Positions 1 through 34,610 of a stretch of DNA of 64,000 nt are shown here, piece after piece. A program made the translations under genes and the position numbers. The stretch lies in assembly GCF_055900595.2 (NCBI RefSeq), contig NZ_CM148325.1, one strand, 5' to 3'. A model generated the notes under the pieces. The model had not been told where the DNA came from, ran no database searches, and saw nothing but the letters and a program-made list of their open reading frames with translations. The first letter of the stretch is position 1. Every line of letters begins with the position of its first letter.

Positions 1-991
1 GTTGGTCGCTCATCCAGGCATCAATGTTAACGACGTCAATACGCGCCATCTCTTCTCGCGTACACAACCGCTGGAGATTAGCGCGAATATCTGCCGCCAG
101 GTTACGCGTAAAGGTCGTGAAAAGTACCTTCTTACCGGGTTTATCTACCAGACGCTGAGATAACCACCGCGCACGGTGCATTGCAACAACCGTTTTCCCT
201 GTACCTGCACCGCCCAGTACTCGTACCGGACCATTAGCGGGCGACTCCACCAGTTTTCGCTGGCTCGGGTGCAGAAATACACGCCATTTTTCTAAAGGCG
301 CATTAAGCATCTGCAATAGTTCCTGTTCATTTTCAACGACATGGAAGCGACGTTTACTTCGTTCAATCGCCTCCATAAAGTCGTTGGTATCAACAGGCTC
401 ATCACGATGATCGTTAAACTCTTCCAGCACTTCCTGGTAATCCAGCCCTTCTGCCAGCCAGTGCAGAGGTTCCCAGGCTTCTGCTGGCATTATGCTTTCA
501 AGTTGATTAAGCCCGGCTTCATCGGTAAGCGCCATCACCTGATCAATAAAGACAGGCGGCACACCCAGGGCCAGAATCTGTTCCGCGCTGTAAGCTGCGA
601 AGAGTTTCGGTTTATCAACCACCGTTTCCGCTGCCGGTTTGATATAGCTAATATCAATGACCTGAATCGCGCCAGTAACCGGGTGAATCGAACAATCATG
701 CCGCCGCGCCCAGTCATATGCTTCGTCGTGTTTATCCACCCACATCAGCATATACAGAGCACCCTGTTCAGGTTTCAGAACAATGCCGCGATAAGTTTGA
801 TCGATTCGCACCGAATGGACATTTTTACTGCGCGCATCGTGGATCTTTTCATAGTTAAGTCCATTACTGGTCGGGTCCTGACGGAATTTGGAGATGAATT
901 CCTGCACCTTTTTTTGCTGTGCTTTTGGGATCCGCGCGAATGCGCCCAGAAAACCATCAGAAAGTGCCACCTTGGGCGTTTGCACCGTCAT
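1..991 (-). CDS. SF1 (UvrD/Rep-like) P-loop ATPase/helicase, N-terminal part; C-terminus lies beyond the window start
   Basis: Minus-strand frame is open from ATG at 991..989 (MTVQTPKVALSDGFLGAF...) to position 1 with no stop; Walker A GGAGTGKTVVAMHRARW appears after a ~250-aa N-terminal region; start overlaps upstream stop as ATGA. Not in the ORF track because its stop is outside the window. Confidence 0.5.
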   Translation of the reverse strand, partial: MTVQTPKVALSDGFLGAFARIPKAQQKKVQEFISKFRQDPTSNGLNYEKIHDARSKNVHSVRIDQTYRGIVLKPEQGALYMLMWVDKHDEAYDWARRHDCSIHPVTGAIQVIDISYIKPAAETVVDKPKLFAAYSAEQILALGVPPVFIDQVMALTDEAGLNQLESIMPAEAWEPLHWLAEGLDYQEVLEEFNDHRDEPVDTNDFMEAIERSKRRFHVVENEQELLQMLNAPLEKWRVFLHPSQRKLVESPANGPVRVLGGAGTGKTVVAMHRARWLSQRLVDKPGKKVLFTTFTRNLAADIRANLQRLCTREEMARIDVVNIDAWMSDQ

Positions 992-3900
992 TTGTCACCT
1001 CCGGACAGATGTTGCAATGTAATTTCGTCAATTGGCCCGAATGCAACGTGCCAACCCCTGGTTGTGAATAATGGAATAAATTCTTGATTATCAATAATCA
1101 ATGCCCATTTTTGTGATGGCCAGGCGAGATCGGCTTCCGCAATAATTTCACCTTCATCATTTTGCAATTCGTAGCCGAGAGTCGGCGCAGAGAGAGAATG
1201 AGACTGAAGCAACGCGATCTCTTCAGCGCTTAATAAGCCAAACTCAATAATCTCAGCCCAACTTTCATCAGTCTCTGGTACTGCCTCTGGCGTTGCCGTA
1301 ACTTTAACGTCAACGCTTTCCTGCGGTAAATGCACGGCTTTACGGCTGGTAAAGGTCATATCCGGCAGGAACTGTAACAGGTTTACCAGTCGCCAGAAGC
1401 CATTGAGTCCCGCTTCATAACCGTCATCCTGCGTATAGCGATCGTCAAAACAGATATGCAAACGCAGCCAGCTGCGCATTTGTGCGACACTGGTCGTCGG
1501 TTTAATGGCTTGTTGTGGCAACACCGAAGCCAGCTCAATAAATTGCTGCGATGAGTTACAGCTATCGAGTAAACCACCAAAGACAAACGGTTCGTCTGGC
1601 AAAAGCTCTGCTAGCCGCCAGGCTGGCGCGTTTTCCTGCATTTCATAGGCATACTTTTGTTTCGTTCCCGCGTCCTGTGACTTCTTCACATCCAACCACA
1701 CCCAGGCATGTGCAGCAGCCATTCTCTGCCATAACTGCGTTCTTCCGCCCGGATCGGCGAGATAATCCAGCAGCAGTGCAAAACTGTTGCGTTCCCGGAA
1801 CGACGCTTCAAGGGCCGCAAAGTTGGTATCGTGAAACAGGTTATAAAACTTAGGCTGTTTCATATCCGGGTTATGCCCAAGCCCCAGGACATCCTGAACA
1901 TGTTTAAGCCCAGGCTCTTTGAGATCGGCCCACGTGACTGTCCACACCCAGAAATTATCGCTATCCCGAATCGCCTGGCGTTTTTGCACATCCTCTGCGA
2001 CGCTATTTTTGTGAAACGCAAAGCCATCAAGGAAAATAGCTACCGGTTTAATGGCATCAGACTGCATAAGCGGATATAGCACGTAATCCGGGCGACAAGG
2101 GATCCCCACTGCCTCTTTAGCGCCTAAATCCACCTGAGCTTTAAGATGCCAGCTCATCATCGGTTCGCTGCGGGTGTTAATAATCCACCCAGCGCCCTGA
2201 TGCGCGTAACTGCGACTGACAATCAGGTTTTTATTTTCTTGCAGGCAGCTAATAAACCGTTTTTCCAGCTCACTGCCCATCATGGCTTCGAGGGAAATGT
2301 TTTTGATGGAATCAATTACCCGTATCGAATCTCTTGCCTGCAAAATTTTCGCCAGCAAGAGACGCGCCTGATCGCGGGAGACATACTTCATGCGCCCACG
2401 GTCACGGTAAGCGTAAACGCAACGATAACAACCATCTTTATGCGTATCATGGTTGCAACTGCATTCCACTATCGCCTGATAGGCCAGTTCAAGTAATTTC
2501 AGCAAATTGTCGGGAGTGCGCATCAGCTCTTTAAGAGAACCAGTCCCCCCCGGGACGGTATCGTAAATCACCAGATACTGCCGCCAGGATTCGCCTTCAT
2601 TTTCCGGCTCGCGGTACACAACGCCTTTCAGGTGATCGACATTCCCCTTGAAGTAATGTTTAAGGCCGAGCTGGATCGCCGCCCCAAGAGAAGCCTCCAC
2701 GACACGGTCATTACTGTAACTGCTTACCGGGAGCAGAATTCGCAACGCTTCTGACTCCAGCTGGCGATAGAGATAGAGATAATCTTCGAACTTCGCCTTT
2801 TCCGGTTCCGTGCGATATTTGCAGCTCAAATCATGACGTGGTTCATGATCGCGAGGACGCTGTACCATGCCGCACCCCAGGCAAACTTTAAACCCGGTTC
2901 GCTTCTTCGCTTCTCCGGCAATCATCAACTCATTGGCATCATCCGCCATTTTGCCGAAGTTGATATCCCGCAGGGTGACTTTGCTTAAAAATTCAAAACC
3001 AAACGGAACTTCGCCTTCCTCAATCGCGTATGCCGCCGATACATCTTCTTTTTCGAAACTAACCAATAGCTGACGCTGGAAGAAAGCAGGTTCACGGCTG
3101 TCGCTCTCGTCGCTGATCTGGCTATCACGTGCGCTGGCGCGGGCATACACCTGGCGAAGTTTCAGCAGCGTGGTTTTTTGTCCGGCGTCGGCCCACCCCG
3201 GTGTGCCACATTTCGGGCAATATTTATGCTGGTCGCCCGTCTGGTCGATATTTTCGCTGTAGTTACAGTGGCTACAGATACGCCAGTTCTCCGGCTCAGA
3301 GACCTTCAGGTCTATCTGCTCAATTTCAACTTTATGCCCACCGGCATAGAAATTATTCAGCGGAGCCAGCTCAGCCAGCGCCGTTGATGCCGGGCGTTCA
3401 TATTCGAAAGTGGTGTTTTGATATTCACGCGCTTCCCCGCCTTCTTTACGCCGCCAGAGCACAGAACGTAACGTAATACCGGCTTCCGGAAAGGCGTAGT
3501 TAGGCAGCAGACCTTCATCCGTGAGGAAATTCAGCGTCTGCTTATTGTTGATTTGATTGACTAGCGCCATCAGCGCCTGCCGTTCTGAAGTTAACTCGCG
3601 CATATCGCTGTCAAAGTTTTGATCGCGCGGCGCGTTCTCCAGCTTATCGATACTGCGCTTGAGTTTATCGATGCGTGAACGCAGAGATTTGCGATCTTCC
3701 ACCAGCAGTTTTAACGCCTCTTCGATACGCTGCACCAGAGAGCGTTGTCCTGGCGCGCCCTGAAGATAAGACAACAACTGTTGGCGAGTTTCTGCGGCAA
3801 GATCGGGGAAGATCGCCGTAAATTGTGCAGCAATCTCCGCATGATGCTGTTCGATATATCTCAGTAAGTTATACGGAAAACCCGATTTACGCCCGAACTC

Positions 3901-6900
3901 CAGCTCATCCAGCATCTGTTTGACGTTTTTACAGATAGCGGATTCTGGTACACCGGTTTTCACCCAGTTATCCATACAAAAAGCTGCCAGCTGGCGTTCG
4001 AGAATAGCCGTTGCATTGAGGAAGACGCCAGGAGCCTGCACCTGGCCCTGCATCATCTCCAGCGGTTCTTCAAAGAAAAACTGATCGTGCGGGTTCCCTT
4101 CTGCCACGGTAATGTTTAACGCGTTACCATCTTTACGACCGGCGCGACCAATACGCTGCAAGTAGTTGGCCTGAGCAGGTGGGACAGAACAGAGTAAAAC
4201 GGTGGAAAGATCCCCAACGTCAATACCCATCTCCAGCGTCGGTGTTGCCGACAACAGGTTGATATTCCACGGTTGGTTGCCGCGGTAGAACGATTTTTCG
4301 GTGGCTTCGCGATCTTCACGGCTAAGCAGCCCCGTGTGTTCTGCGCCCTGCACGCGCGCGATGTCCATGTTCTCCCAACGCCAGGTCGCCATATTGTCGA
4401 CTTCCTGGTAACGACCTTCACAACGTAAAGAGAGACAAGGCGCATTACGCCACTGCCAGCCTTGATCGGCCGGAGCCCGGACAACCTCACGGCAACATGA
4501 ACAATTAAGCTGAACGACGTCACGGCTCACCACCAGCGCAGAAGGCACCAGTCCCCAGGCTTCACGCCCTTTGGTGTCAAAATCTTTTACTACTCCGGCT
4601 ATTTTCAACGCCGTAAACAGGCGTCGTAACACTGTTTCCGCAACGCTACTGATAAACAGATTATTGCCGTTACTCAGCGTGCGATTGATCCAATGCTGAT
4701 ACCAACTGGGGTTAGACTTCGCGCCAATCAGGCGATGGAAACCATTAATTTTTTCAAACGACGCATAAGCCGGTTTACGCGTTTTCGGACCGATAGAAGG
4801 CATATAGCGCGAGGTACGCTCTTTTTGCGTCATCATAAAGGTCGTGCCATCACGGCGATAACTTTCGAACGTCGGATGCATAACGGCCCCGGCCTGGCGT
4901 TGATACCAAATAACCCCCAGCGCCAGGTGCGCGACCTGCTCGACGCTCACACCGGACATCTCATCACCCAGCTCTTCACAAAGCTGTTGATGCAGGGCGG
5001 TAATTGCCGGATTAAAGCGTTCTTTATCCACTCCGGCAACGGCATAACCGGTGGCTTCCAGCGTACGTCCGATACGCGCGCGCAGGGTAAATTCGCTGTA
5101 CACCTCCCAGTCGAGGCGCAGGGAAACCAGCTCCGGCAGATCGGAGTTCTCCGCCAGTTTGCCTTCATTTTTCAGTGTCTGATAATCATTCAGCCACTGC
5201 ATATTTGGTGCGATGAAGTTCGCTGCAAAATGAGCATCGTCCGGTGAACGTTCACGCGTTTGTTGGCAAACACGCGCCGCGAACGCATCCAGCGGTAATG
5301 TCTCTTTTTCGCCAAGAACACTGGCGATTTGCCCACGAATCATCAGCGGCCAGGTACGGGCAGTAAAGAAGCTGGCACGATGCGCGGCGTCTTGTACCGA
5401 GTCAGAAAACGTAATCAGCTTTTTATGTTCGTTGAACTGGCTGCCATAAAGCTGGTGAATCATCACCGCCGACAGACTGGCAGCCCGTGACCCCAGAATC
5501 GAAATCCCCTGTTTGCTGTTGCAGTACGGGCATTCATTAGCAAACTCCAGCTCGTCCTTACGCTCTTTGAGCATATCCGGGATCAGTACCTGCAACAGTT
5601 CCGTATGACCGCAATGTCCACACTGGACGCTGGACTGTCGGTTCAGTTTCAGACAGATAGGGCACAGTTTCTGGTGTGCGCCACTGACCGCTTTTTCGTT
5701 GTTATCCGGGAAAGCAAGGACGATGGAGCGCCCTTTTTCAAAGAACTGGCGATAAATGCCGTCGAGGTCTGTTTCCAGCTGAACGCTTTGCCCATGACGC
5801 AGGCTGGCCCAGCCGGTTGCGTGGCAGTCACGGCAGTGGATAACCGGCAAATAGTGTTCGCGATCTTCCACCGCCACATCATCGGCAAACACCAGTCTCG
5901 GCGTTTTCGCCACGCTGGCGACCAGACGACGCATCTCACGAAGCCACAACTGGGAACGCAGTTGCACAAACGGCAACACCGGGCGCGCTTTCTTCGCCTG
6001 GAGACGTTTTTGCCGATCGTGTTCCGTTTCCGGTACTTCGAGACGTGCCTGCGCGATCAGCGCCAGAATGCTTTGCAGCACGCGTCGGGCATGGTCGGCG
6101 CTTTCTGCCAGCATGACCTGGAGATTTTCCAGACACTCTCGTTCAGAGAGGATCCCGCCTTGCAGATCATGGAGTAAGACATGCATCACGCTGTGGCGGC
6201 GTAACAGTGACCCCAGCGCAATACGCTTTTCGCGCCCGTCGTCGCTCTCCAGATCGTCCGGGAGTTGCAAGTCGCTGTCGGAGAACCACAAAGGGATTTG
6301 TCCGTTGAGATACGCCACCGGGGTAGCGTAACTCTGCGGGTCCAGCGCCGAAGCGACCTCCGGCCCCGGATACTGACTGTACGCAATGGCGTAATCCTGC
6401 AAGTACTCCGCTGCCGTGTAGCGATCTTCGCGAATAACGGCGTCATCGGTAAACGGCTGGTCAAAGATTGTTTTTGCGTAATCGAGCAGTTGCCCCAGTT
6501 CGTCGCCGACGGTAGCTGATGTCCCGACGCAGGCGAATCGTTGGTTATCCACACCTATGTGATGCTTCAGACGTCGCACCAGACAGGCCAGATCCGACCC
6601 TTGCGCGCCATCAAACGTATGCAATTCATCCACGACCAGGTAACGCAATGAACCGGGCTGGTTGTAACGCCAGAGCGGCTGATCGCCAGGGCGCATCAGT
6701 AGGTAGTCGAGCATTTTGTAGTTGGTCAACAGGATGTCCGGCGGGCTTTCGCGCAGCGTGTGCTTACAGGTAATGACCTTTTCTGCCGACATTTTTTTGC
6801 TGGGTTCGATTTCGCTGTCGCCGACAAACAATCCGACGGTCACCTTGCCATGCAGTTGTGGATCGCTGGCGATGGTTTTGGCGAAACGGCTGGCCTGATC

Positions 6901-7329
6901 GGTTGCCAGGGCGTTCATCGGGTAGATGATAATTGCTTTAACCCCGGCTTGTGACGCGCCCGCGCAGTGGTTGAGCAGCGGGAACATAAAGCATTCTGTT
7001 TTACCGGAGCCGGTACCGGTAGCGACCAGTGTCGGCTGTGGCGCGTCGCATCCCAGACGCTGAAATGCCCGGGCCTGATGCGCGTGCGGCGGGAACGGCA
7101 GCGTCAGATTAGGGAAAAAATTCAGCGGTAAGTCACTTTTACGAAACGGCAACTGGGCGGAAAGGTATGGTCCTTTCAGCAGCGTTTCGGGCTGGGCCAG
7201 AAATTGCTCCAGCATTGAGACATTATCGTTATTCTCACCGTTAAACAGCGGGCTGTTTAGCGGGAACGCCGCCCGTAAAAAGGCGGCAACGCTGTCGGCG
7301 ACCTGCCGACTGACAACGGACGGCAACAT
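988..7329 (-). CDS. Giant SF2 DEAD/DEAH-type helicase with Cys-cluster (Zn-ribbon/DUF1998-like) regions, DruE/DrmA-like, 2113 aa
   Basis: Motif I GTGSGKTE, motif II VVDELHTF, distant motif VI QRIGRAGR; several CxxC pairs (CRDCHATGW, CPICLK...CGHCGH, CSHC...CPKCG, CLGCG); start overlaps upstream stop (TGATG at 7327..7331). Confidence 0.65.
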   Translation of the reverse strand: MLPSVVSRQVADSVAAFLRAAFPLNSPLFNGENNDNVSMLEQFLAQPETLLKGPYLSAQLPFRKSDLPLNFFPNLTLPFPPHAHQARAFQRLGCDAPQPTLVATGTGSGKTECFMFPLLNHCAGASQAGVKAIIIYPMNALATDQASRFAKTIASDPQLHGKVTVGLFVGDSEIEPSKKMSAEKVITCKHTLRESPPDILLTNYKMLDYLLMRPGDQPLWRYNQPGSLRYLVVDELHTFDGAQGSDLACLVRRLKHHIGVDNQRFACVGTSATVGDELGQLLDYAKTIFDQPFTDDAVIREDRYTAAEYLQDYAIAYSQYPGPEVASALDPQSYATPVAYLNGQIPLWFSDSDLQLPDDLESDDGREKRIALGSLLRRHSVMHVLLHDLQGGILSERECLENLQVMLAESADHARRVLQSILALIAQARLEVPETEHDRQKRLQAKKARPVLPFVQLRSQLWLREMRRLVASVAKTPRLVFADDVAVEDREHYLPVIHCRDCHATGWASLRHGQSVQLETDLDGIYRQFFEKGRSIVLAFPDNNEKAVSGAHQKLCPICLKLNRQSSVQCGHCGHTELLQVLIPDMLKERKDELEFANECPYCNSKQGISILGSRAASLSAVMIHQLYGSQFNEHKKLITFSDSVQDAAHRASFFTARTWPLMIRGQIASVLGEKETLPLDAFAARVCQQTRERSPDDAHFAANFIAPNMQWLNDYQTLKNEGKLAENSDLPELVSLRLDWEVYSEFTLRARIGRTLEATGYAVAGVDKERFNPAITALHQQLCEELGDEMSGVSVEQVAHLALGVIWYQRQAGAVMHPTFESYRRDGTTFMMTQKERTSRYMPSIGPKTRKPAYASFEKINGFHRLIGAKSNPSWYQHWINRTLSNGNNLFISSVAETVLRRLFTALKIAGVVKDFDTKGREAWGLVPSALVVSRDVVQLNCSCCREVVRAPADQGWQWRNAPCLSLRCEGRYQEVDNMATWRWENMDIARVQGAEHTGLLSREDREATEKSFYRGNQPWNINLLSATPTLEMGIDVGDLSTVLLCSVPPAQANYLQRIGRAGRKDGNALNITVAEGNPHDQFFFEEPLEMMQGQVQAPGVFLNATAILERQLAAFCMDNWVKTGVPESAICKNVKQMLDELEFGRKSGFPYNLLRYIEQHHAEIAAQFTAIFPDLAAETRQQLLSYLQGAPGQRSLVQRIEEALKLLVEDRKSLRSRIDKLKRSIDKLENAPRDQNFDSDMRELTSERQALMALVNQINNKQTLNFLTDEGLLPNYAFPEAGITLRSVLWRRKEGGEAREYQNTTFEYERPASTALAELAPLNNFYAGGHKVEIEQIDLKVSEPENWRICSHCNYSENIDQTGDQHKYCPKCGTPGWADAGQKTTLLKLRQVYARASARDSQISDESDSREPAFFQRQLLVSFEKEDVSAAYAIEEGEVPFGFEFLSKVTLRDINFGKMADDANELMIAGEAKKRTGFKVCLGCGMVQRPRDHEPRHDLSCKYRTEPEKAKFEDYLYLYRQLESEALRILLPVSSYSNDRVVEASLGAAIQLGLKHYFKGNVDHLKGVVYREPENEGESWRQYLVIYDTVPGGTGSLKELMRTPDNLLKLLELAYQAIVECSCNHDTHKDGCYRCVYAYRDRGRMKYVSRDQARLLLAKILQARDSIRVIDSIKNISLEAMMGSELEKRFISCLQENKNLIVSRSYAHQGAGWIINTRSEPMMSWHLKAQVDLGAKEAVGIPCRPDYVLYPLMQSDAIKPVAIFLDGFAFHKNSVAEDVQKRQAIRDSDNFWVWTVTWADLKEPGLKHVQDVLGLGHNPDMKQPKFYNLFHDTNFAALEASFRERNSFALLLDYLADPGGRTQLWQRMAAAHAWVWLDVKKSQDAGTKQKYAYEMQENAPAWRLAELLPDEPFVFGGLLDSCNSSQQFIELASVLPQQAIKPTTSVAQMRSWLRLHICFDDRYTQDDGYEAGLNGFWRLVNLLQFLPDMTFTSRKAVHLPQESVDVKVTATPEAVPETDESWAEIIEFGLLSAEEIALLQSHSLSAPTLGYELQNDEGEIIAEADLAWPSQKWALIIDNQEFIPLFTTRGWHVAFGPIDEITLQHLSGGDK

Positions 7330-10300
7330 CAGGCGCTCTCCTTATCTTGTGCAAAGAACGCCCAGGCCACTTTGTAATCGTCTTCGCGATCCGGCTTGAT
7401 AAACGGAGCCTGCCAGGTGACGGTACGGCGCTCGCCTTCGTCGCTGCGGGTATAGTCATCAAAGGTGACGCTGACGGTACCGGTTTGCAGATGTTTGACA
7501 TCATCCCAGCCGATAGCCTGATCGGTGCAGTCACCGCCGGTCCAGTCCGGGCTGTCGACGTTAAAGACAAAGCCGTTTTTCAGGTCAGCTTTACGCGCAG
7601 TGCGAGGCAAGCCAACGCCCACCAGCCCTTTGCTTGGGGTAAAGATAATGCGACCGTTTTGATCGTACCAGGTATCCGCTTCGTACTGGCGCATCACCGG
7701 GAACTGAACGCGATAAATGGTAAGCAGTTCTTCGAGGGTTAACCCTAGCGCCTGCGCCACCAGTACGTCGATTTCCACCAGCGCCTGACGACGACTGTAG
7801 TCAGAGCGTAAGGCGCAGTTACGCTGCCACTCTGGGGTCAGATTGGTGAAGAAATCCTGGGGAAGCGGCGGGAGATCGCGGCTCCAGCGCTGGGTGTTGA
7901 AGTCTGGGGTGTAGCAGGATTGCCAGAGATCAGCGTAATCTTTCGTTAACACATTCAAAGCTAATGCTCTTGAGTTTGCACTCATTAACTCAACATAAGG
8001 GAAGCCACGCAATGTTGATTCATAAACATCCGCCCGCCCTGTTGTTTTCAAATAAAAATCAGCCACTATTGAATGGCAAAATGCAGAGAAACTTAGCAGG
8101 TTTATTGGCTCTCTAAATGTTGTTGAGAGTACAGGGTGTATATGAGCAACGTGCTTTGGAACTATGCTGGATATCATCGAGCGTTCTGATGATGCCCCAA
8201 ACATTCTTCGATTAACAAAACGATAATAGTCCGTCACCTTCCTCGGCTCGTCTTCATCCTGCTCTTTCCACGAAACCCGTGGGGTGCGCTTTGCATACTC
8301 CTGTGCATCACAGGCTGGAATATAGTTAGTGCGCGGCAAATAGTCGTCGGGCAGAGTTAGCAATTCTAGGTTATCGTATGCTTTATTCGTGTCACAAACC
8401 GCTCTAGGCGTATTGTAGAAAGGATTGCCAACAAAAAAATGAGGGCCAGACAAAACCCATTGTGATGCTTCTTCCGGGAACTGTGTATGTCGCTCAATTG
8501 TACCATCGCTTTGCTGATTAGTTTCATGCCACATTTCTAGAGAATAATATTGCCCCTGCAAATCACCTAATCGCCTAGGTTGTTTCGCAAACTTTTCAAG
8601 TACTGCAACCAATTGAGTAGCATGTAACGCAGGAAGACGGGCTTCATGTGCTGTAGTGCCAGCACTATCATAGAGACGCGAGAAAAGACCTAATTGCTTT
8701 AAATTTACATGCAAGACTCGATCGAAATGTCCCTGAAAATTCCATTTAACCTTTATTTTACCATCAATTTCAGTTTCTTCTTTTATCCCCGGAACAATGC
8801 CTTCCCCTTTATGTTCAAAACACGCATCAATAGTTTGAGGAATAAATAAATTTGCTATATTTGAGAATGCCACTATCTGAGAATAGGGGCCATACACATT
8901 AATGCTAAATAATGTCTGGTTATGCACCTCAGTGAATAATTTCGTTTCATTAATAAACTGAAAATGCGCCCTAAGCCTCGGATATACCGACGCACGCAGC
9001 TGCCCGCCTTTTGGGTCATCATAAATCCCTTCCGGGTGCAGGAACCCTGCCACGCCTTTCTCTGCCCCCAGACGCCAGGCCTGCGGCAGGAAGCATTTAT
9101 ACAAGTTGGTCTGCACCCCGCGCAGTACCGGGTAGTTCTGCTGCGCATTGAGGAAGTTTTGCATCCCTTCACAGCCTTCATACTCGCTGCGCCAGGCCGC
9201 TTCCAGCGCCGGGATCTGGTTAAAGGTATCAATACGCAACGTTGCCAGCTTCGATGCACTCAGCTTACGCAGCACAAATTCCGGCTCGTAATCACCCAGC
9301 ACGCCCGCTTCCTGCCATTCCACTTTCAGCCACGGCGGGTTTCCGAGCATCAGGTCAAAACCGCCACGCTCGGCAAACAAGTCGCAGAACTCCAGATCCC
9401 AGTGGAAGAAACGGTGCTGCTTTCTCAGGGCATCGACAATCGCCAGACGCGGCAAATGACGGAACAACACCTCGGTTTTCAGACGACCAGCAACGGAAAA
9501 CAGCGAAGACTCTTCTCGCAGCAGGCCGTCTTCGGCAAACAGATCGCCAGTGGTGTGCTCCGCAACTTCAGTGACTTTTTCCGTGATTACAATCCCGTCG
9601 AGCAGGGTTTCAATCTCAAACAACCAGGTGCCGCGATCCGGTAACTCATCGGCTTTGTCGATCGGCCAGAACCACAGCGCGCACCAGTAGTCCATCACCC
9701 AACGCAGCTTCTGGTAGGCGCTGTTATCTTCAAGACGACCGCTAAAGGTTTCATCTTTACTGCTCAGCGAAGAACGCGTCTGCTCGCTGTTTTCTGCCGG
9801 CCACACCGGGTAGCTGTCGGCGGTTTTCAGACGTTCTGCTTTAAGTTGCTGGCGATAGGTGTTCCACAGAGCTTCCACCTTTTCGCTGATACGCTGCACA
9901 TCAGCAATCTCATGCCCGGCAAAGCTTTTAATAAACTCTTTGCGCCAGCTGTCCAGGGCTTTGAAGTCATCCGGATAACGCTGCTTAACAGTTTTATCGC
10001 TGTAGTTAGCCATACCGCCGTCGGGCAGCAGGAAGTGAAAAATCTGCGTCTCTTCACGCGGCGTGTTCATCGCCAGTTCGACCGGCTCGCTGTTAAGCCA
10101 GCTCGGATCTTTGGCTTTTTTGTAGGTCAGTTCACTCTTGTTGAACACCTGACGGCGCGCGCCCACCAGTGAGTTACCGCAGTGCAGCTGGTAACCAAAC
10201 CACGGTACAAAGGCATCGCCACTGATGGCGTTCAACCACAGCGACACTTCCGCCAGTTCCACCGCCACCGGGTTTAAGTCCACGCCGAAAACGTTGTTGT

Positions 10301-12251
10301 CGGCAATGTACATTTTCACCCGCTGTAACTCCTGGGTGTAACGATCCTGCGGAATACGGCGACCTTCCGCCTGCTGCTTGTGGAACAGATACGCTTCCGC
10401 CAGCTGGTTGATGGCTTCGTTAAGGAACGCCGCGCTGCCCATCGCCGGTTCGCACACGGTGAGGTTTAAGATGGCATCAGCTTTGGCGTGCGGATCGCTA
10501 ATGGGATCAATCTGCTCCTTAAACAGTTCTTTCAGGGCATATTTAACCAGTGAGCGGGTCAGCACTTCCGGGGTGTAATAAGAGGCAGATTTCTCACGGT
10601 CGCGCCCGGCCATACGGTAGATAAAACTGCCTTTGCGGTGAATGCGCAGACTGCCGTCTTTCTCGTAGACCTTCTCGTCTTCGTGGTATTTGCCAATCTC
10701 ATCCTTACTGACGAAGTAACCCGTCTCCAGCTCGTTAAACTCTTCCCCGGCTTTCTTCACCTCGTAGAGATCTTCGCTGGCGAAGAATCCGCGATAGGAA
10801 AGCAGCGCCTCATACACCGCACCTAACTGGTTGATACCCAACTGGCGATAAGAAATACGTCCGCGGCGGTTAAAGCGCCCTTTGCCCGGGCGGCTTAACG
10901 ACATCGCCTGGATAATCTGTTGCAGGGTTTCGTTACGGAATACCACGCGGTTAAGAATGCGGGTGTTGTTGGCATCGAAAAGATGACTTTCCAGACGCGG
11001 GACGCTGAACTGATGACTATGGATGGTGATCCGGTCGCCGCTCTCCAGGTCACTCTGTATTTTCACGCCGCCGTTGTAGCCTTCGCGCACCAGTTTAAAC
11101 AGCATATTCAGGCTGTCGTGGAAGTAGCGCCCGTTGCGATCTTCTTCGCTGGTCAGCGGGATCATCTCCAGATCGCGCAACGTTTCCAGGCTGTAACCTT
11201 GCAGATAGGTTTTGGCGGTCATTGGCGCATAACCCAGCTCCGGGCGCGCTTCAATGTAGAACAGGAACAGCAGGCGGTACATGTAACGCAGACATTCGCG
11301 GCTCAGTTCATCCGGGTCCACCGCACGGTTACCGGTATAGTTTGCCAGGCCACGGTCGATCAGATAATGCATCGCTTCGTTGCCCAGCAGCTCAATACTT
11401 TCGCGCAGGGCATATTTCAGATCTTCCGAAACACCAAACGCATGTTTGTGCGAATTGTCATCCAGCGAGTCAAGATAAGGTGCCCCACTGCCCGGCAGCA
11501 GCGAATCTTTATGTAGCAACACTGCCGTCGCTTTCAGCGTATCCGTTTCACGACGACTTAAAATCTCTTCAAAATCAAAACGTAGCAGACGGTTTTGCGC
11601 CCACTTAGTACGGTCCAACAACAATAGCTGACGGTTACCGAGCAGCAGCACAAAACGCGGCGGTTCATTTTGAGTGAAGACCGCCGTAGAGAGCAGATCC
11701 TGCCAGCTGCGATATTCACCGTTGGCTTTTTTGCGCAGGCTGTCGCGCTTATGTTTGTCGGTATCCGCCGGGAATTGCGCGGTCAGTAAAGAGAGCGCCA
11801 GCGGATCCAGCGTTCCTTCTTCCTGATCGTGTGCTTCAACAATCCACAGCCACGGGCTACCGTCAGTGCTGTTGTAACGCGCCAGTACCGGCAGTGGTGT
11901 ATCGTCATCCAGCATTTGGATCTGCGGCGTAATTTCGTAGCCCAGCGCCTTTAACAATGGCTGCCAGCGATTACGTTGATCGGCCAGACGCTGCGGGATC
12001 TGACGCTGTTTTTCGTGCTCGGCAAGTTTGCGGAAAAACTCAGTCGCCAGACTGTTAAACTGGTTCCACGGAGCGCGGTATCCCGGCTCTACGTCTTTGC
12101 CCTGTTCACGAGCGGCACGCTCCGCTTCACGCGCTGCATTTTCCTGGGCTATCCAGGGTTCCAGCACATCGCGGATATCACTGGTGAATACCTCACCCAA
12201 ATAGTGGTTAGAGTAAAATTCGTTTTCGTTATTAATACCGACCAGCGCCAT
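7329..12251 (-). CDS. Large N6-adenine DNA methyltransferase (Eco57I/type IIG-like gamma class), 1640 aa
   Basis: AdoMet motif I-like VCEPAMGSAAFLNEA; catalytic-type motif GNPPWLK; HCGNSLVG motif; long N- and C-terminal extensions; start 2 nt after upstream stop. Confidence 0.65.
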   Translation of the reverse strand: MALVGINNENEFYSNHYLGEVFTSDIRDVLEPWIAQENAAREAERAAREQGKDVEPGYRAPWNQFNSLATEFFRKLAEHEKQRQIPQRLADQRNRWQPLLKALGYEITPQIQMLDDDTPLPVLARYNSTDGSPWLWIVEAHDQEEGTLDPLALSLLTAQFPADTDKHKRDSLRKKANGEYRSWQDLLSTAVFTQNEPPRFVLLLGNRQLLLLDRTKWAQNRLLRFDFEEILSRRETDTLKATAVLLHKDSLLPGSGAPYLDSLDDNSHKHAFGVSEDLKYALRESIELLGNEAMHYLIDRGLANYTGNRAVDPDELSRECLRYMYRLLFLFYIEARPELGYAPMTAKTYLQGYSLETLRDLEMIPLTSEEDRNGRYFHDSLNMLFKLVREGYNGGVKIQSDLESGDRITIHSHQFSVPRLESHLFDANNTRILNRVVFRNETLQQIIQAMSLSRPGKGRFNRRGRISYRQLGINQLGAVYEALLSYRGFFASEDLYEVKKAGEEFNELETGYFVSKDEIGKYHEDEKVYEKDGSLRIHRKGSFIYRMAGRDREKSASYYTPEVLTRSLVKYALKELFKEQIDPISDPHAKADAILNLTVCEPAMGSAAFLNEAINQLAEAYLFHKQQAEGRRIPQDRYTQELQRVKMYIADNNVFGVDLNPVAVELAEVSLWLNAISGDAFVPWFGYQLHCGNSLVGARRQVFNKSELTYKKAKDPSWLNSEPVELAMNTPREETQIFHFLLPDGGMANYSDKTVKQRYPDDFKALDSWRKEFIKSFAGHEIADVQRISEKVEALWNTYRQQLKAERLKTADSYPVWPAENSEQTRSSLSSKDETFSGRLEDNSAYQKLRWVMDYWCALWFWPIDKADELPDRGTWLFEIETLLDGIVITEKVTEVAEHTTGDLFAEDGLLREESSLFSVAGRLKTEVLFRHLPRLAIVDALRKQHRFFHWDLEFCDLFAERGGFDLMLGNPPWLKVEWQEAGVLGDYEPEFVLRKLSASKLATLRIDTFNQIPALEAAWRSEYEGCEGMQNFLNAQQNYPVLRGVQTNLYKCFLPQAWRLGAEKGVAGFLHPEGIYDDPKGGQLRASVYPRLRAHFQFINETKLFTEVHNQTLFSINVYGPYSQIVAFSNIANLFIPQTIDACFEHKGEGIVPGIKEETEIDGKIKVKWNFQGHFDRVLHVNLKQLGLFSRLYDSAGTTAHEARLPALHATQLVAVLEKFAKQPRRLGDLQGQYYSLEMWHETNQQSDGTIERHTQFPEEASQWVLSGPHFFVGNPFYNTPRAVCDTNKAYDNLELLTLPDDYLPRTNYIPACDAQEYAKRTPRVSWKEQDEDEPRKVTDYYRFVNRRMFGASSERSMISSIVPKHVAHIHPVLSTTFREPINLLSFSAFCHSIVADFYLKTTGRADVYESTLRGFPYVELMSANSRALALNVLTKDYADLWQSCYTPDFNTQRWSRDLPPLPQDFFTNLTPEWQRNCALRSDYSRRQALVEIDVLVAQALGLTLEELLTIYRVQFPVMRQYEADTWYDQNGRIIFTPSKGLVGVGLPRTARKADLKNGFVFNVDSPDWTGGDCTDQAIGWDDVKHLQTGTVSVTFDDYTRSDEGERRTVTWQAPFIKPDREDDYKVAWAFFAQDKESA

Positions 12252-12253
12252 GA

Positions 12254-15112
12254 TTAACCCTCCGCTCCGGTGATAACAGCAATTACCTGAATGTAGGGTT
12301 CTTTTTCAGTCGTCATGGTGTCCTCAATCCATTCGATATAGCTGTCAAAATTGTGTTCGATTTCGCGTTGTCTCTGCTCTTTACGGCTCTGCTTAACTGA
12401 CAATTGCTGTTTGTTATCGGCAAAATCCAGCTCAAGTTGGCTCAACTGCCGCCCACGCAAAACGTCCAGCTTTTGCAGATGCTCATTCAGTTGCTGGTTA
12501 ATGTGCGTTTCAAACGCATTCCGATCATGGATGAATACCTCCCGGGCATGAGCAATAGCCGCTTCCAGTAAATCCTGCTGGCGCTGGTGATTACGATCTT
12601 TACCGCCGCTGTTAGTCAGCTTGTTACTCAACTGCGGATGACGTTGTAAAAACTCAGCGAATGGCTGACTGCCGATTAGCGATTCACGGTTAAAGCTCAC
12701 CACTATCCACGGGTTCACCATCGGATGTGATTTACGGTTCGGGAATAACCCGGAAAGAATGAAGTGATCTTCATCGGGTTCAAGCAGGTATGGCAGACGG
12801 ATAACCGGTGCCTGATGACGACCAAAAGCCGAAGAGATTTTATCGTCCAGCCACTGCACTACCGGGTTGATTTGCCAGAGATACTGCACATCGGGCCAGG
12901 CATGTTGCTCACCGCGAGCGCGTGCAATCGCGTCGGTGATGACGGTTTTATCCTGACTTAAAAAGAGCTGCCAGTTCTCCGGGGCGATTTCAGGCGGTAG
13001 CTGGTTGAAGCGGCGGCGTAACTCCTCCGGTGCCACCAGCGACAAGGTATTATCAGGCAAGGTTTCATACTGGATAGTTTGACCACTGGCTTTCAGGTAA
13101 CCCAATGCTCTTTCACAGTACGCCTGTTCGCTGGCAAACAAGCTGGTGTCTGTTTCGATGACCATTGAGGCATCGCTGGAAACCGCACTGCATATTTCGC
13201 CAAACAGATCGTGTTCGGCGCTTTCCGAGACGTTGCTGTTCAGCAGTTGATCAAACAGGCTGGCACCATCATCCTGCATCATGAACTCTGCAACCTGCTC
13301 TTCTTCCTCTTCCTGGGTAAATTTGCCGGTAAACTCCGAACTGTCCCCAATGTTCTTCTGCGCCTGTTCGTCTTTGTTGATCAACACTTCCAGTACGCGC
13401 ATATCGCCATTGATCTGCGGTTCGCTGGCCTCGGTAAGCAGATAGCGGATTTGAGGCTGATGTTTTTGCCCATAGCGGTCAATACGCCCGTTACGTTGCT
13501 GGAATACCATCAACGACCACGGAATATCAAAGTGAATCATTTTGTGGCTAAGGTGATGCAGGTTGATCCCTTCAGATGCCACATCCGAACAAACCAGAAG
13601 ACGCAACGGCGACTGCGTTTTACCAAAGGCTTCTACGGTTTCCATCAACACCGTATCGCCCTGATCGCCGCGCAGCGTGGCGATCTGATCATCTTTCAAT
13701 TTCAGATCCGCTCGCAGTTGCTGTTCGAGGAACTCCAGCGTTTTAATGCTTTCGGTGAAGATCACCAGGCGATCTTCCGTGTTATTGGCTTTCCAGGCGA
13801 GGTCTTTTCGGATGGTGTCGAGCAGCAACTGGTATTTGCTAAACTGGCTGGCATCAATGTTATTCAGCGCCAACAGCAATGACTCCAGTTCGTTGATCTG
13901 GCTCTGGCTATTATGATCTTTACGGCTCTCAAGACGCTTCAGACGATTAGCCACTACGCTGGCACACGCCATCGGGCTGGAAAATAGCGCTTTTTCGAGG
14001 GTTATCTTGAACAGACGACCTTTGTTAGACTGGGCCTGTTCATCGTCATCATCACGGAACTGACTCTCAACCAGGCGACGGTATGCTTCTTCTTCGGCAC
14101 CGGATGCCAGGCGAGTCAGTTTGACAATATTGCGCTCGGGGAACTCGCCAGACATCTGATCTTTCACGTCTTTTTTGAAGCGACGGACAACCAGATTTTT
14201 ATCGGCAAAGTCGGCGTATTCATACTCTTTCGGGTTGGCGATCGCCGTCGGGTCAAGCATGTTCATCAGGCTGGCAAAACTTTCAGCTTTACCATCATGC
14301 GGCGTTGCTGAAAGCATAATCAGCGTATCGCTGCGCCCGGCGAGCAGTTTTGCCAGTTTACTGCGTAACGAACTGGTTCCACGTTCTGCGACGTTATGGG
14401 CCTCATCAATGACAATAATATCCCACCAGGCATTTTCCAGATGGTGACGATATTCAATATCTTGTTTCAGCGTATCGATGGAGATAATGGTCTTGTCAAA
14501 ATAGTGGAACGGGTTGTGGTTGGTAGGGATGCGGTTACGCACTTTTTGTAAACCAGCAGAATCCAGGCGGGTCAATGGGATCGCAAAACGGCTCCAGAAC
14601 TCCTTCTGGAATTGTGTCAGCATCGATTTAACCGCCAGAACCAGAATACGTTTTCCGCGCCCACGACGGATCAGTTCCGAAACCAGAATACCCGCTTCCA
14701 GCGTTTTACCCAGACCGACAGCGTCGGCAATGAGTATCCGCTGACGCGGTTGTGCCAGCGCCATCCGCGTAGGATCGAGCTGAAACGGCATGGAATCCAT
14801 CGCCGCCAGATGTCCAAAATGGACTTTACTGTCTGTCGGTACGCGTTGGCGTAACTGACTTTCAATATACAACTGTGCCGCCTGATAATTGGCGGATTCA
14901 TCTTCCACCAAATGCGTTTTTGCGGGATCAAGGATCTCTACTTTTTGTTCCAGTTTGGTCAGAAATAACCCTTCTTTACCGCGCACAAGCTCTGAAATAC
15001 CATCGCAGGTCAGCAAATACCCACCATCACCACTGTCATCCGCCCGGCGAATACGCCATTCGGCATCACGAATAACCACCCGCATACCAGGTGCATAATT
15101 TTGCTTATTCAT
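12254..15112 (-). CDS. SNF2-family (SF2) helicase/ATPase, 952 aa
   Basis: Walker A ADAVGLGKT, DEAH box IVIDEAHNV, helicase-C region with QQRNGRIDRYGQ; first gene of the coupled operon. Confidence 0.7.
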   Translation of the reverse strand: MNKQNYAPGMRVVIRDAEWRIRRADDSGDGGYLLTCDGISELVRGKEGLFLTKLEQKVEILDPAKTHLVEDESANYQAAQLYIESQLRQRVPTDSKVHFGHLAAMDSMPFQLDPTRMALAQPRQRILIADAVGLGKTLEAGILVSELIRRGRGKRILVLAVKSMLTQFQKEFWSRFAIPLTRLDSAGLQKVRNRIPTNHNPFHYFDKTIISIDTLKQDIEYRHHLENAWWDIIVIDEAHNVAERGTSSLRSKLAKLLAGRSDTLIMLSATPHDGKAESFASLMNMLDPTAIANPKEYEYADFADKNLVVRRFKKDVKDQMSGEFPERNIVKLTRLASGAEEEAYRRLVESQFRDDDDEQAQSNKGRLFKITLEKALFSSPMACASVVANRLKRLESRKDHNSQSQINELESLLLALNNIDASQFSKYQLLLDTIRKDLAWKANNTEDRLVIFTESIKTLEFLEQQLRADLKLKDDQIATLRGDQGDTVLMETVEAFGKTQSPLRLLVCSDVASEGINLHHLSHKMIHFDIPWSLMVFQQRNGRIDRYGQKHQPQIRYLLTEASEPQINGDMRVLEVLINKDEQAQKNIGDSSEFTGKFTQEEEEEQVAEFMMQDDGASLFDQLLNSNVSESAEHDLFGEICSAVSSDASMVIETDTSLFASEQAYCERALGYLKASGQTIQYETLPDNTLSLVAPEELRRRFNQLPPEIAPENWQLFLSQDKTVITDAIARARGEQHAWPDVQYLWQINPVVQWLDDKISSAFGRHQAPVIRLPYLLEPDEDHFILSGLFPNRKSHPMVNPWIVVSFNRESLIGSQPFAEFLQRHPQLSNKLTNSGGKDRNHQRQQDLLEAAIAHAREVFIHDRNAFETHINQQLNEHLQKLDVLRGRQLSQLELDFADNKQQLSVKQSRKEQRQREIEHNFDSYIEWIEDTMTTEKEPYIQVIAVITGAEG

Positions 15113-15182
15113 CGGTTTTTCTGTCTATTTGGGGCAGTGGCGGTAACGTCATCCTGAAAAATGTGGCGCGGCACACTGCGAT

Positions 15183-15216
15183 AAAAAAGAGGGCCTTAAA
15201 GATATCATGAAGGCCC
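15183..15216 (-). terminator. Putative rho-independent terminator downstream of the DruE-like gene
   Basis: Plus-strand AAAAAA run (15183..15188) followed by hairpin gggcctt / aaggccc (15191..15216); on the minus strand this reads as a stem-loop followed by a T-run. Confidence 0.4.
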
Positions 15217-15335
15217 CCGGCAAAGTGACAAAATGGGAGGGAATGCGCATAATTTGCGCATGATTTTCAAACAAAAATTATTAAAAAGTGAGCTGGGTCA
15301 ACTCCCCTGGAAGATATCCCCAGGGGAGCAATTAT

Positions 15336-18300
15336 TTATCCAGCGATAACATAACTCCTAAGGTCATTACCCGGGGCAACAGCTCGCGCTCGCGTGTTTG
15401 CCAGCCGTTCAACTTGCTGCGGTACTCGCAGAGCAAAATCAAAGAAGGTGTCTTCAATACAGCGCCAGTAGCTAAGCCCCATGTCGAGCAGGACATAATG
15501 CTGACTGCCATCGCTGAAGGTGACTGTCAGTTCTCGTCCATGCTCCGTACTCTGGTTATCCCCCGTTAACCAGCTAATTGCTCCCGGCCACGCAGGCCCC
15601 AGATATCCTTCTTCAAGTAAAGTGGTCACAACCTGCTGACGATCTTCCTCATTAAGCCACGCGTTATAGAGAGCGTTGTGTTGGCGAGAGTTGTAATCCA
15701 ATTTTTTGACGCAAACAGTGAGGCTGGCGCGTTCCGCCATTCCCTGTTCAACCAGCTCGGTTAAGATTTCACCTAACATACGCGCCGTGAATGGGCTATT
15801 AAGATAACGATCGCTGTACTCAACATGCGTTATCTCTTTGTGGCGGGTAAATGCCTGCTTCCAGCCAGCGTGCTGTTGCGTGACTAACGACCAGAAACGC
15901 GAACCAAACCCTTCCAGCGGCCCGTCCAGTTGCTCGCAGAGGTTGATGCGCACCGCCCCGGTGGGTAAGGCGGGCAGTAAATCTTCTGCACTTAAGGTCT
16001 GACCCGAGAAGGTTTTTCCGGACGTTCCTTTAAGTGTCACTACTGGTGAGGACGCACTTTGTCCCCATAATTCACCAGGTGCAACGGTAGCGCTGTCGTC
16101 TGCGGCCCACTGTTGGCTTTGCCCTTCGCGAGTCACCTGCGCAAGCCAGCGCCCCTTTCCTTGCATGAGTTGCGCAGTGGCAATGGATTTCACTTGTAAG
16201 CGTCCTCCCGGCATCGCCGCCAACGCGGAAAGCTGATGTCTGGAGCTATCAGTTAAGTTTTCCAGCGGCGTGGCCACCAGCAACTCAACATTCCCACCGG
16301 AGGAGGCAAACTGGAGCAACTCTTTAAATAATGGCCATTGGGCAAAGTCCCACTGTTCCTGCGGCCCCGCAAGAACCAGCGAGCAGGAGTCATAAATCTC
16401 GCTGTTCAGGCATTGCGCAATACGTAAACTCAGAGGGTTAGTTTCAACCCGGCTACCATCGACGAAGTACTGATATTCTGGCGCGAGGTTAAGTCGCTGC
16501 AACCGTACATTGGTAAGCAGGGTTAATGCATGGTGACGATCTAATCTGTTGACATAATGCTGACTGTCGTAGCTGAGCAAGCAGTGGTGACAGAATTTAT
16601 CGCAACTGCAATCGAGCAATTTTCTGGCGTAATTAAAGACATCAGCCCAATGGTCGATCAATTGCACTGCATAACCTGCACCACCCGCATTATTGTCGTA
16701 AATGAAGATGGAATATCCGGTATAGCCATTGATATCGCGCGCTTGCTGCGTCGTCACGCCCAGCTCAGTATTTTCGATACCCAATTTATGCGCTAACCCT
16801 TCACGCAAAGCGACCGCAAGGGAACGCGCGGCAACCTCATCACGGATCAACAGGCCATTATCATCATTGAGTTGCAGCTCAACCATATCTGTACGACTGC
16901 TATACCCCAACCACAGATCTTTATGCACATGACCGTGGCACAATTTATTGCTCCCCTGACGATCGTTACTGCCCCCTCGCAACAGGTAATGCGTATTTTC
17001 CCGCTCTGGGTTCTTTAGATTTTCAGGGGTACGCTGGGGTTGAGTTTGAGATTCTGCCCGACCACATGAGAGGCAAATTGCGTAGCCGTGCCCAAATTCC
17101 CCTTCACTGAAGTGGAACAATTCCCCACTATGGCTAAAACGGTAACGTCCTAGCCCAGCATCGGGTAAAGAAACCCACACCGAAGACGGTACAAGAACAC
17201 GTGGATCTTTCCAGGGAAGTTGTGCAGGCATGGATACATCATTATGTGCCTGATAACGAATATCTGTCGCAAAACCAACAGGCTGTAAATAACGCTTCAC
17301 ATCAAGTTGCTGTATATCCGCTTTGCAGTGACTACATTCGACAGGATGGGTAGCACTGGTTGCCCCCGCACCACATTTACGGCAATGCCAGAACCACGGA
17401 ATATGATGATCGCCTGACAGCTCCTGCCCGCTGGCAAGTACCTTGCCAAGCATAATGCCCGAGGAACGATATACTTTTCCGCCCAATACCACATCTGCAC
17501 CAGGCGCATACTCGCGTAATGCTGTAGGTAGATCACGGCAGGGCAATTTTTCAATACGACGAGAAAAGCTTTCTCCCCCTTCATTAGGGTCAGCCTGAGT
17601 AGCTTTTATTGCGCGACGTTTTTCCAGCTCATCTGCCGTCAGATAATTGAAATTGACGACACCAACCGGGAAACCATGCCCTGGCAGGAACGCTTCACTA
17701 ATGAGTTTAGAAAACAGATATGCACCGCGATAATCACGAAGCTGATAAGCGATGGCTTTACCTGCTGGCGTTTCTTCCCACGCGCTGTTATCCGCTTTCA
17801 ACGCTTCGATATTTTCCAACAGTATCGCAAGTTGGCTTCTCCAGCGGATATCAACCTGCTGCATCATTGCTTGTGTGCGGGTCAAGAGCTGGGTTGCCGT
17901 CAATGACATCAGGACGGTTCCCTGAGTAAGGCGTTTAAGTTTATCCGCCAGCTGATCGGCCTGGTTATTTAACCAATGGAGAAAACGAAGACACTGGCTC
18001 TCATCACCTTCAAAGAACCATTTGCAACTCAGTTTTGTCGCATCAGGAACTTCAGCTCGTAAAAACAGACCTAAAACCAGGGCATTAACATGTCGTTGAA
18101 CAATACTGCTGCTCCCAAAACGAACCCGTGGCGCACTGGCAGTAGTGTTGAACGCCCAGAGGGGGTCTTTGAATACCTCCATTCCATGCGCCGTGTTTTT
18201 ACATAACGTAATGGCAGCAGATGCACTCTCTCCACGTCGACCCGCGCGGCCTGCACGCTGCAAATAATTTGCCGGAGCTGGAGGAACGTTGTTCATTGCC

Positions 18301-34525: not shown

Positions 34526-34610
34526 TGGTGCCGAAGGCCGGACTCGAACCGGCACGTATTTCTACGGTTGATTTTGAATCAACTGCGTCTACCGATTTCG
34601 CCACTTCGGC
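34526..34610 (-). tRNA. leuX: tRNA-Leu (anticodon CAA)
   Basis: Reverse complement reads GCCGAAGTGGCGAAATCGGTAGACGCAGTTGATTCAAAATCAACCGTAGAAATACGTGCCGGTTCGAGTCCGGCCTTCGGCACCA, 85 nt with CCA end and CAA anticodon in the loop. Confidence 0.9.

Follow-up and report, generated by a model that had tools for sequence, protein, structure and literature searches.

The open reading frame that runs off the left edge of the window, i.e. the 64,000 nucleotides of contig NZ_CM148325.1 (assembly GCF_055900595.2) analysed here, is almost without doubt armD, which comes fourth and last in the ARMADA type II anti-phage operon armABCD. ArmD has already been named and genetically validated, so that the feature itself is known and little is gained by its rediscovery. 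What is added here concerns the conservation of a RelE-type site in its N-terminus, a helical domain, a UvrD/PcrA-like motor lacking the 2B domain, adjacency of ArmD to ArmC, and the nesting of further systems between armB and armC. The explanation as a whole, comprising the identity of ArmD, its three modules, the partnership with ArmC and the proposed function, is regarded as very probable.

Results

The truncated frame is an intact and conserved gene at the end of its operon

The features at the window edge are as follows.

1–991, minus strand: 5' part of armD, codons 1–330 of 704, the remainder lying beyond the window edge (open frame and full-length relative)
997–1002, minus strand: Shine-Dalgarno sequence GGAGGT of armD within the 3' end of armC, ~5–6 bases before the ATG (read from the sequence)
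988–991, minus strand: ATGA overlap of the armD start codon (991–989) with the armC stop codon (990–988) (sequence and ORF list)

Translation of the minus strand from the ATG at 991 to position 1 yielded 330 codons free of stops, as claimed previously in a sequence-only reading of this DNA. The product starts with MTVQTPK and carries VLGGAGTGKTVVAMHRARW, which is exactly the Walker A motif quoted there. That reading had attributed the absence of the gene from the ORF list to the window edge, and the list indeed places the 2113-aa neighbor at 988..7329 on the minus strand. The reported overlap of the start codon with the stop codon of this helicase gene (ATGA) could be read directly in the DNA, with the ATG at 991–989 and the TGA at 990–988. 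In addition to this genuine overlap, armD possesses its own strong ribosome-binding site.

The first 2.5 kb of the window have a match of at least 95% identity in 525 out of 5426 complete E. coli genomes, the best reaching 99.7%. In NZ_CP043414 (99.7% identical), armD is intact, comprises 2115 nt encoding 704 aa, and is annotated as “UvrD-helicase domain-containing protein”; its first 330 residues are identical to those of the window protein. The possibility that an early stop codon or frameshift follows beyond position 1 had been raised as an argument against the gene. Neither was seen in the closest relatives, in which the 704-aa frame is intact, while the continuation of the window itself cannot be read. 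The N-terminal 237 aa matched 1825 protein clusters (50% identity) at E≤0.001, and the match is almost invariably N-terminal in a protein of ~700 aa. This breadth, together with the recurrence of the 2.5 kb in E. coli, argues that armD is not a chance ORF. A plus-strand ORF of 248 aa (window 341–1087) lies wholly antisense to armD and is most likely a shadow ORF, given how deeply the armD frame is conserved.

At the 3' side in NZ_CP043414, armD is followed ~20 nt past its stop codon by a perfect 10-bp GC-rich hairpin, which was read directly from the sequence and which, being devoid of a T-tract, was not flagged by a terminator scan. Beyond it, an AT-rich spacer of ~500 bp leads to an oppositely oriented gene, after which come nanM/nanC and fimB. 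armD is the final gene of its operon, and its earlier description as an operon-terminal SF1 ATPase holds, more precisely as an SF1A protein of the UvrD family according to Pfam.

Operon architecture and published mutants identify the gene as armD of ARMADA type II

The operon and the adjoining island comprise the following genes.

988–7329, minus strand: armC, 2113-aa helicase of YprA-like DEAD/DEAH type, bearing an MZB (DUF1998) domain and, at the C-terminus, a ZorE-like HNH region
7329–12251, minus strand: armB, 1640-aa PglX-like/type IIG-like DNA methyltransferase (PADLOC REase_MTase_IIG, 6.6e-288; DrmMI matches)
12254–15112, minus strand: armA, 952-aa SNF2/BrxHII/DrmD-like helicase (PADLOC DrmD, 1.5e-99)
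15336–21659, minus strand: DruE of Druantia III (PADLOC/NCBIfam)
21650–25009, minus strand: DruH of Druantia III (PADLOC/NCBIfam)
25221–28694, plus strand: zorA2/zorB2/zorE of Zorya II, divergent from druH/druE
29521–30171 (minus), 30251–31180 (plus) and 31799–33844 (minus): three genes between Zorya II and leuX (annotation of a related genome)
34526–34610, minus strand: leuX, tRNA-Leu(CAA), which the island adjoins

The product of armA matched NCBIfam DISARM_DrmD at 4.4e-104, a score under the curated cut-off. The armC product gave partial matches to DruE and DrmA and a ZorE2 match at aa 2021–2096 (PADLOC), and ArmC orthologues bear the Pfam domains DEAD, Helicase_C and MZB. The names ArmA, ArmB and ArmC were given in two preprints (PMC12458937; 10.1101/2025.09.22.677730). 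As judged from the ORFs, PADLOC, NCBIfam and RefSeq's annotation of the locus with 99.7% identity, the order armA (SNF2/BrxHII-like), armB (PglX-like), armC (YprA-like) and armD is the layout of ARMADA II. A RelE-like domain fused to a helicase, which characterizes the fourth component of this type, is found at the N-terminus of ArmD. It is this agreement of operon architecture and neighbor assignments with ARMADA II that identifies the truncated gene.

Both preprints, PMC12458937 and bioRxiv 10.1101/2025.09.22.677730, date from 2025 and describe exactly this array. The ArmD proteins tested stem from E. coli NCTC 12900, ATCC 8739 and EDL933 (z5902) (PMC12458937; 10.1101/2025.09.22.677730). The published mutant positions K266 and D454 coincide with GTGK266T (Walker A) and VVD454EAQD (Walker B) in the present protein; since K266 is the Walker A lysine and D454 begins Walker B, the numbering matches that of the published protein. 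No substantive difference from ArmD of ARMADA type II is apparent, and the window protein is almost certainly an allele of the tested one.

Loss of any one of the four arm genes abolishes protection against phage HK022, the K266A exchange in ArmD likewise abolishes and D454N weakens it, and defense is non-abortive, i.e. the host is not killed (PMC12458937). In EHEC EDL933, deletion of armD sensitizes to phage Bas18, less so than the other arm deletions (10.1101/2025.09.22.677730). Given this milder defect and the partial effect of D454N, ArmD may be accessory for some phages. A literature search found no account of its mechanism.

Several observations concern the operon and island beyond armD. 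The armB stop and the armC start share base 7329 and the gap between armA and armB measures 2 nt (12251–12254), which suggests translational coupling through the entire armABCD operon rather than at armC/armD alone. The C-terminus of ArmC (aa ~2021–2096; window 988–1270) matches the HNH region of ZorE from Zorya II (PADLOC, 4.5e-9), and the same tail is C-terminal in TmtA proteins encoded near ArmD- or ArmC-like genes (locus L021, 4958–9796; L023, 2–3532). As far as these matches tell, the ZorE-like tail is a module common to Zorya II, ARMADA II and Tmt. The arrangement of Zorya II and Druantia III together with ARMADA II beside leuX is the published array, O-island 172 of EHEC. In the related genome, two of the three genes between Zorya II and leuX bear annotations, one as HNH endonuclease and the other as “phosphorothioated DNA-binding restriction endonuclease”; the remaining gene encodes a 681-aa hypothetical protein for which PADLOC gave no match.

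The motor of ArmD resembles UvrD and PcrA and lacks the 2B domain

The part of the motor that lies within the window comprises two features.

2–286, minus strand: start of the SF1A motor of ArmD (aa 236–330), with W236, Q-motif HPSQ (241–244), Walker A and motif Ia
191–211, minus strand: Walker A, GAGTGKT (aa 261–267), K266 at 194–196 (read from the sequence)

Pfam analysis of the 704-aa protein detected UvrD-helicase at 241–490 (7e-23) and UvrD_C at 509–615 and 620–693. The sequence-only reading had advised a search for nuclease domains in the missing C-terminus; Pfam found no nuclease domain there, the C-terminus being simply the remainder of the helicase core, and the nuclease-like module is N-terminal instead. 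W236, H241, Q244 and G260–K266 are invariant in the alignments of ArmD homologues, GTGK266T and D454-E455 are invariant in sets of 54 and 71 homologues, and all SF1 motifs are invariant. When a profile built from 54 ArmD sequences was compared with PDB, the nearest entries were UvrD1, UvrD, PcrA and Rep (1e-40 to 1e-31), followed by helicase IV and HelD. The segment corresponding to 2B is skipped: Pfam UvrD_C model positions ~103–279 are left out, and the alignment to UvrD jumps from ~374 to ~545. By these alignments, the ArmD motor is predicted to be a compact SF1A motor (1A, 1B, 2A) without 2B, spanning residues ~236–704.

UvrD, Rep and PcrA are thus the nearest solved relatives of this motor, which keeps all their helicase motifs. 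In contrast to them, ArmD has an N-terminal extension of its own, no 2B and a defense-operon context. Assignment as a housekeeping helicase was rejected, as scores stayed far under the NCBIfam equivalog cut-offs (UvrD, 89.7 vs. 965; PcrA, 99.6 vs. 911; Rep, 91.4 vs. 951). Helicase IV and HelD were dismissed likewise (69.2 vs. 543 and 45.5 vs. 419, respectively, with the 2B segment absent).

Both preprints label ArmD as GajB-like (PMC12458937; 10.1101/2025.09.22.677730). In agreement, its best matches in the defense library PADLOC are GajB models (PDLC00132, 2.7e-36), which are numerous and generic. GajB (PDB 8j4t, 8sm3, 8u7i) and ArmD are alike in that each is a compact UvrD-family SF1A ATPase and an accessory subunit of a defense complex. 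Hence ArmD might, instead of translocating as a helicase, sense DNA ends and hydrolyze nucleotides, either depleting (d)NTPs or switching on a nuclease partner as in Gabija, and a partner with a nuclease-like C-terminus does exist in the form of ArmC with its ZorE-like HNH region. However, the ArmD profile matched solved GajB at 4e-11 and only across aa 439–569, as compared to 1e-40 to 1e-37 for UvrD1, UvrD and PcrA, whose matches extend over the full core. An OLD-family GajA partner is missing from the operon, in which PADLOC found no GajA match, so that the Gabija system could be discarded. In addition, GajB has no counterpart of the 235-aa extension made up of the RelE-like and helical domains, and the non-abortive phenotype speaks against general nucleotide depletion. 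We therefore consider such a GajB-type role improbable. Since UvrD and PcrA are far closer and GajA is lacking, “GajB-like” is a loose label: the profile comparisons place ArmD in the UvrD family and lend no support to membership in the GajB family.

The N-terminus of ArmD comprises a predicted RelE/YoeB-fold domain and a helical domain

The extension preceding the motor measures ~235 aa, the Q-motif region beginning at ~236 and the Pfam UvrD-helicase domain at 241. It contains two domains.

647–991, minus strand: RelE/YoeB-fold domain of ArmD (aa 1–115), with conserved E48, R62, R68, H88, D89, W94 and Q110
302–586, minus strand: helical domain of ArmD (aa 136–230), no recognized relative

An N-terminal domain of ~250 aa with unknown function had been proposed for this region. 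The size was close. The lack of an assignable function stands for residues ~136–230, for which no solved relative was found, but not for residues ~6–113, which are predicted to form a RelE/YoeB-fold domain, as already published. In the predicted structure, the N-terminal domain displays a RelE/ParE fold, i.e. a beta-alpha-alpha unit followed by an antiparallel sheet. The N-terminal 237 aa gave no match in Pfam or among PDB sequences, and the family HMM of the N-terminus reached no RelE-family toxin among PDB sequences. Because these sequence searches failed, the assignment rests on the predicted structure; some JGI annotations of N-terminal homologues bear a RelE label as well.

Residues were mapped using hhalign, comparing the family alignment with single YoeB and RelE sequences and with a low-diversity YoeB alignment obtained by homologue search, with weak scores throughout. 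The global profile alignment lays YoeB 1–84 on ArmD 6–89 with a weak score (E 0.02–0.16). At these values, E46, R59, R65, H83 and Y84 of YoeB would correspond to E48, R62, R68, H88 and D89 of ArmD. Catalysis involves E46, R65, H83 and Y84 in YoeB, and K52, K54, R61, R81 and Y87 in RelE. The register is additionally backed by fold superposition scores.

Conservation was assessed in 71 full-length ArmD homologues, taken from genomes that represent species of many phyla. E48, R62, R68, H88, W94, G107 and Q110 are kept in all 71 and D89 in 70, so that conservation of the RelE-type site equals that of the Walker residues K266, D454 and E455 in the same set. Mean column conservation amounts to 0.66 in the RelE-like domain, as compared to 0.72 in the segment 236–340 including Walker A and 0.54–0.57 in the rest of the motor. 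Such strong constraint favors a working active site over a relic. Nonetheless, one would not expect a non-abortive phenotype from an active RelE-type toxin; a role without catalysis would be compatible with it, and we put the chances that the ArmD domain is catalytically active at even.

According to the non-catalytic alternative, the RelE-fold domain would serve in docking to ArmC, as a sensor of nucleic acid or ribosomes, or in ParE-like protein binding, leaving the motor as the sole contribution of ArmD. This accommodates the non-abortive phenotype more easily. It is less readily reconciled with E48, R62, R68 and H88, which are kept in every homologue and fall on the YoeB positions Glu46, Arg65 and His83 in the best alignment, as a docking surface seldom needs an invariant Glu/Arg/Arg/His set across phyla. 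We regard this alternative as a serious one, though with a chance well short of even.

Comparison with known toxins revealed further differences. YoeB, RelE and YafQ (PDB 2a6q, 4fxe, 4q2u) are free-standing, whereas the domain of ArmD is part of a helicase polypeptide, and an antitoxin gene is lacking. In the ORF list and at the related locus no small ORF adjoins that could encode a cognate antitoxin, the upstream gene being that of the 2113-aa ArmC. Sequence similarity of ArmD to these three toxins is below HMM detection, and ARMADA is neither toxic nor abortive. As compared to YoeB, ArmD carries an extra helix and a beta-hairpin (aa 88–113) past the core, and the position of Y84 is held by the Asp residue D89, near-invariant at 70 of 71. 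Cami1, a CRISPR ancillary ribosome-dependent RNase composed of CARF and RelE domains (PDB 8phb, 8phj), is gated by cyclic tetra-adenylate via CARF and arrests growth; in ArmD, an ATPase motor is attached to the domain instead and the system is non-abortive. A 923-aa variant with the ArmD N-terminal domain is encoded in locus L011 (3409–6180; P0129), preceded by two unannotated genes (666 and 355 aa) and with no ArmC in view; it may show the domain in another architecture or context.

ArmD is coupled to ArmC across phyla

Species-representative genomes were scanned with the N-terminal alignment, yielding at least 559 carriers, from which 80 loci of many phyla were kept with 10-kb flanks. ORFs were called in these loci and scored against the window proteins, and 77 loci proved informative. 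An ArmC-like ORF was present upstream of ArmD in 70 of the 77 (~90%): in 60 cases within 150 nt and in 7 at a distance of 152–2298 nt, while 3 ArmD genes abut short C-terminal ArmC fragments. The gap exceeded 700 nt in just two of the 70, namely L065, in which a 416-aa ORF occupies it, and L086. Among the 60 adjacent pairs, 23 show the 4-nt start/stop overlap seen in the window.

ArmC was absent upstream in 7 of the 77 loci, and neighbors were annotated in four of these. In L018 (Vibrio ezurae, 334–12148), a split DISARM-type DrmA/DrmB is found 4.6 kb upstream of the ArmD-like gene, and three genes intervene, one of them encoding a NERD-helicase. In L020 (Holophagaceae MAG, 9980–20585), the ArmD-like gene is followed by those of a 1014-aa protein and of a DruE-like helicase (1792 aa). 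TmtA is upstream of the ArmD-like gene in L021, with no ArmC directly upstream, and in L047 the single neighboring ORF tested gave no match.

Thus, the 2113-aa helicase and the co-translated fourth component postulated for it earlier are recognized as ArmC and ArmD of ArmABCD, tightly coupled across phyla. We consider it likely that ArmD is an obligate partner motor of ArmC, and gene order suggests that both proteins probably form a physical complex.

Could armD rather be simply a neighbor of ARMADA, either a separate single-gene module, toxin-like or abortive, or a housekeeping repair helicase? It is a terminal gene, defense islands pack unrelated systems together, and RelE-fold domains are typical of toxin-antitoxin modules. 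However, its start overlaps the armC stop, ~90% of the homologues across phyla abut an ArmC-like gene, housekeeping equivalog scores are far under cut-off, and an antitoxin gene is lacking. Above all, deletion of armD or mutation of K266 abolishes ARMADA defense (PMC12458937). This possibility is extremely improbable and effectively refuted by the published genetics.

On the other side of armD, candidate PDC-M27 A, B and C genes (C being SNF2-like) follow co-directionally in L012–L016 (Citrobacter, Siccibacter, Mangrovibacter, Enterobacter; 12305–18226); in E. coli, the island boundary follows ArmD instead.

Further defense systems are nested between armB and armC

The region upstream of ArmC was informative in 40 loci: ArmB is adjacent in 16, ArmB precedes an insert of 0.7–3.1 kb in 7, an ArmA-like gene alone is present in one, and 16 have no ArmB. 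The last class means none within the 3–4 kb in view, and with 10-kb flanks armAB located further upstream is indistinguishable from absent armAB. The genes found before ArmC belong to defense systems, namely Zorya II, PsyrTA, TmtA, HEC-01, PDC-M16 and SoFic, and further comprise Lamassu-like, HEC-05, DRT4/6-type reverse transcriptase and pAgo-like genes. In P. aeruginosa (L092, GCA_025003405.1, 1–19875), ArmB is followed co-directionally by a 379-aa protein, a 962-aa UvrD-like protein, GmrSD, ZorA, ZorB, ZorE, ArmC and ArmD. Aliidiomarina indica (L094, 1–19692) has ArmB, two small ORFs, GmrSD, ZorABE, ArmC and ArmD, and Shewanella algae carries a 1020-aa gene between ArmB and ArmC.

With no ArmB in view (3–4 kb), defense genes also precede ArmC-ArmD in L091, L026, L084, L067, L087, L023 and L025; the systems in this set are PsyrT/PsyrA, PDC-M29A plus HEC-01A, PDC-M16B, AriA-like plus SoFic, LmuB/PDC-M68B, TmtA and HEC-05. 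Other loci noted for the context upstream of ArmC are L002 (583–3645), L038, L050 and L088.

The armC-armD pair is kept even where up to ~10 kb of defense genes part armB from armC. Thus, armC and armD are almost never parted, while the armB|armC junction accommodates whole nested systems. The text of the ARMADA preprint (PMC12458937) portrays the gene order as strict and is silent on nesting.

Discussion

The mechanism that we propose for ArmD would proceed as follows. ArmD would be a dedicated subunit of ArmC, made in step with it and probably bound to it. On phage DNA intermediates, ArmD would act as a second motor or as a clamp driven by ATP hydrolysis; the related DruE is a ssDNA helicase of 3'-to-5' polarity. 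The N-terminal YoeB-type site would most likely be an endoribonuclease acting locally on RNA at the tracked phage nucleic acid, not a cell-wide toxin. Put together, ArmD might be an ATP-gated YoeB-type endoribonuclease carried by ArmC to phage nucleic acid, armCD an effector pair that is portable, and the junction of armB and armC a recurrent insertion hotspot for Zorya II, GmrSD, DRT, pAgo-like, HEC-05 and other systems. In this full form the proposal is tentative and may well not hold. If it is true, tracking of DNA by two helicases would be combined in ARMADA II with local cleavage of RNA, and the infection would be cleared without harm to the host.

ArmD offers testable handles, i.e. the conserved Glu/Arg/Arg/His set, the 2B-less motor, the helical domain without a relative and the near-obligate coupling to ArmC. 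Should nesting at the armB|armC junction prove general, it would be relevant to the assembly of composite defense islands and to the question why Zorya II travels along with ARMADA II. ARMADA II reportedly makes the dominant contribution to the resistance of EHEC O157:H7 against phages, acting in synergy with Druantia III, and is relevant to phage therapy as well as to the understanding of the defense systems that employ YprA helicases (DISARM, Druantia, Dpd and ARMADA).
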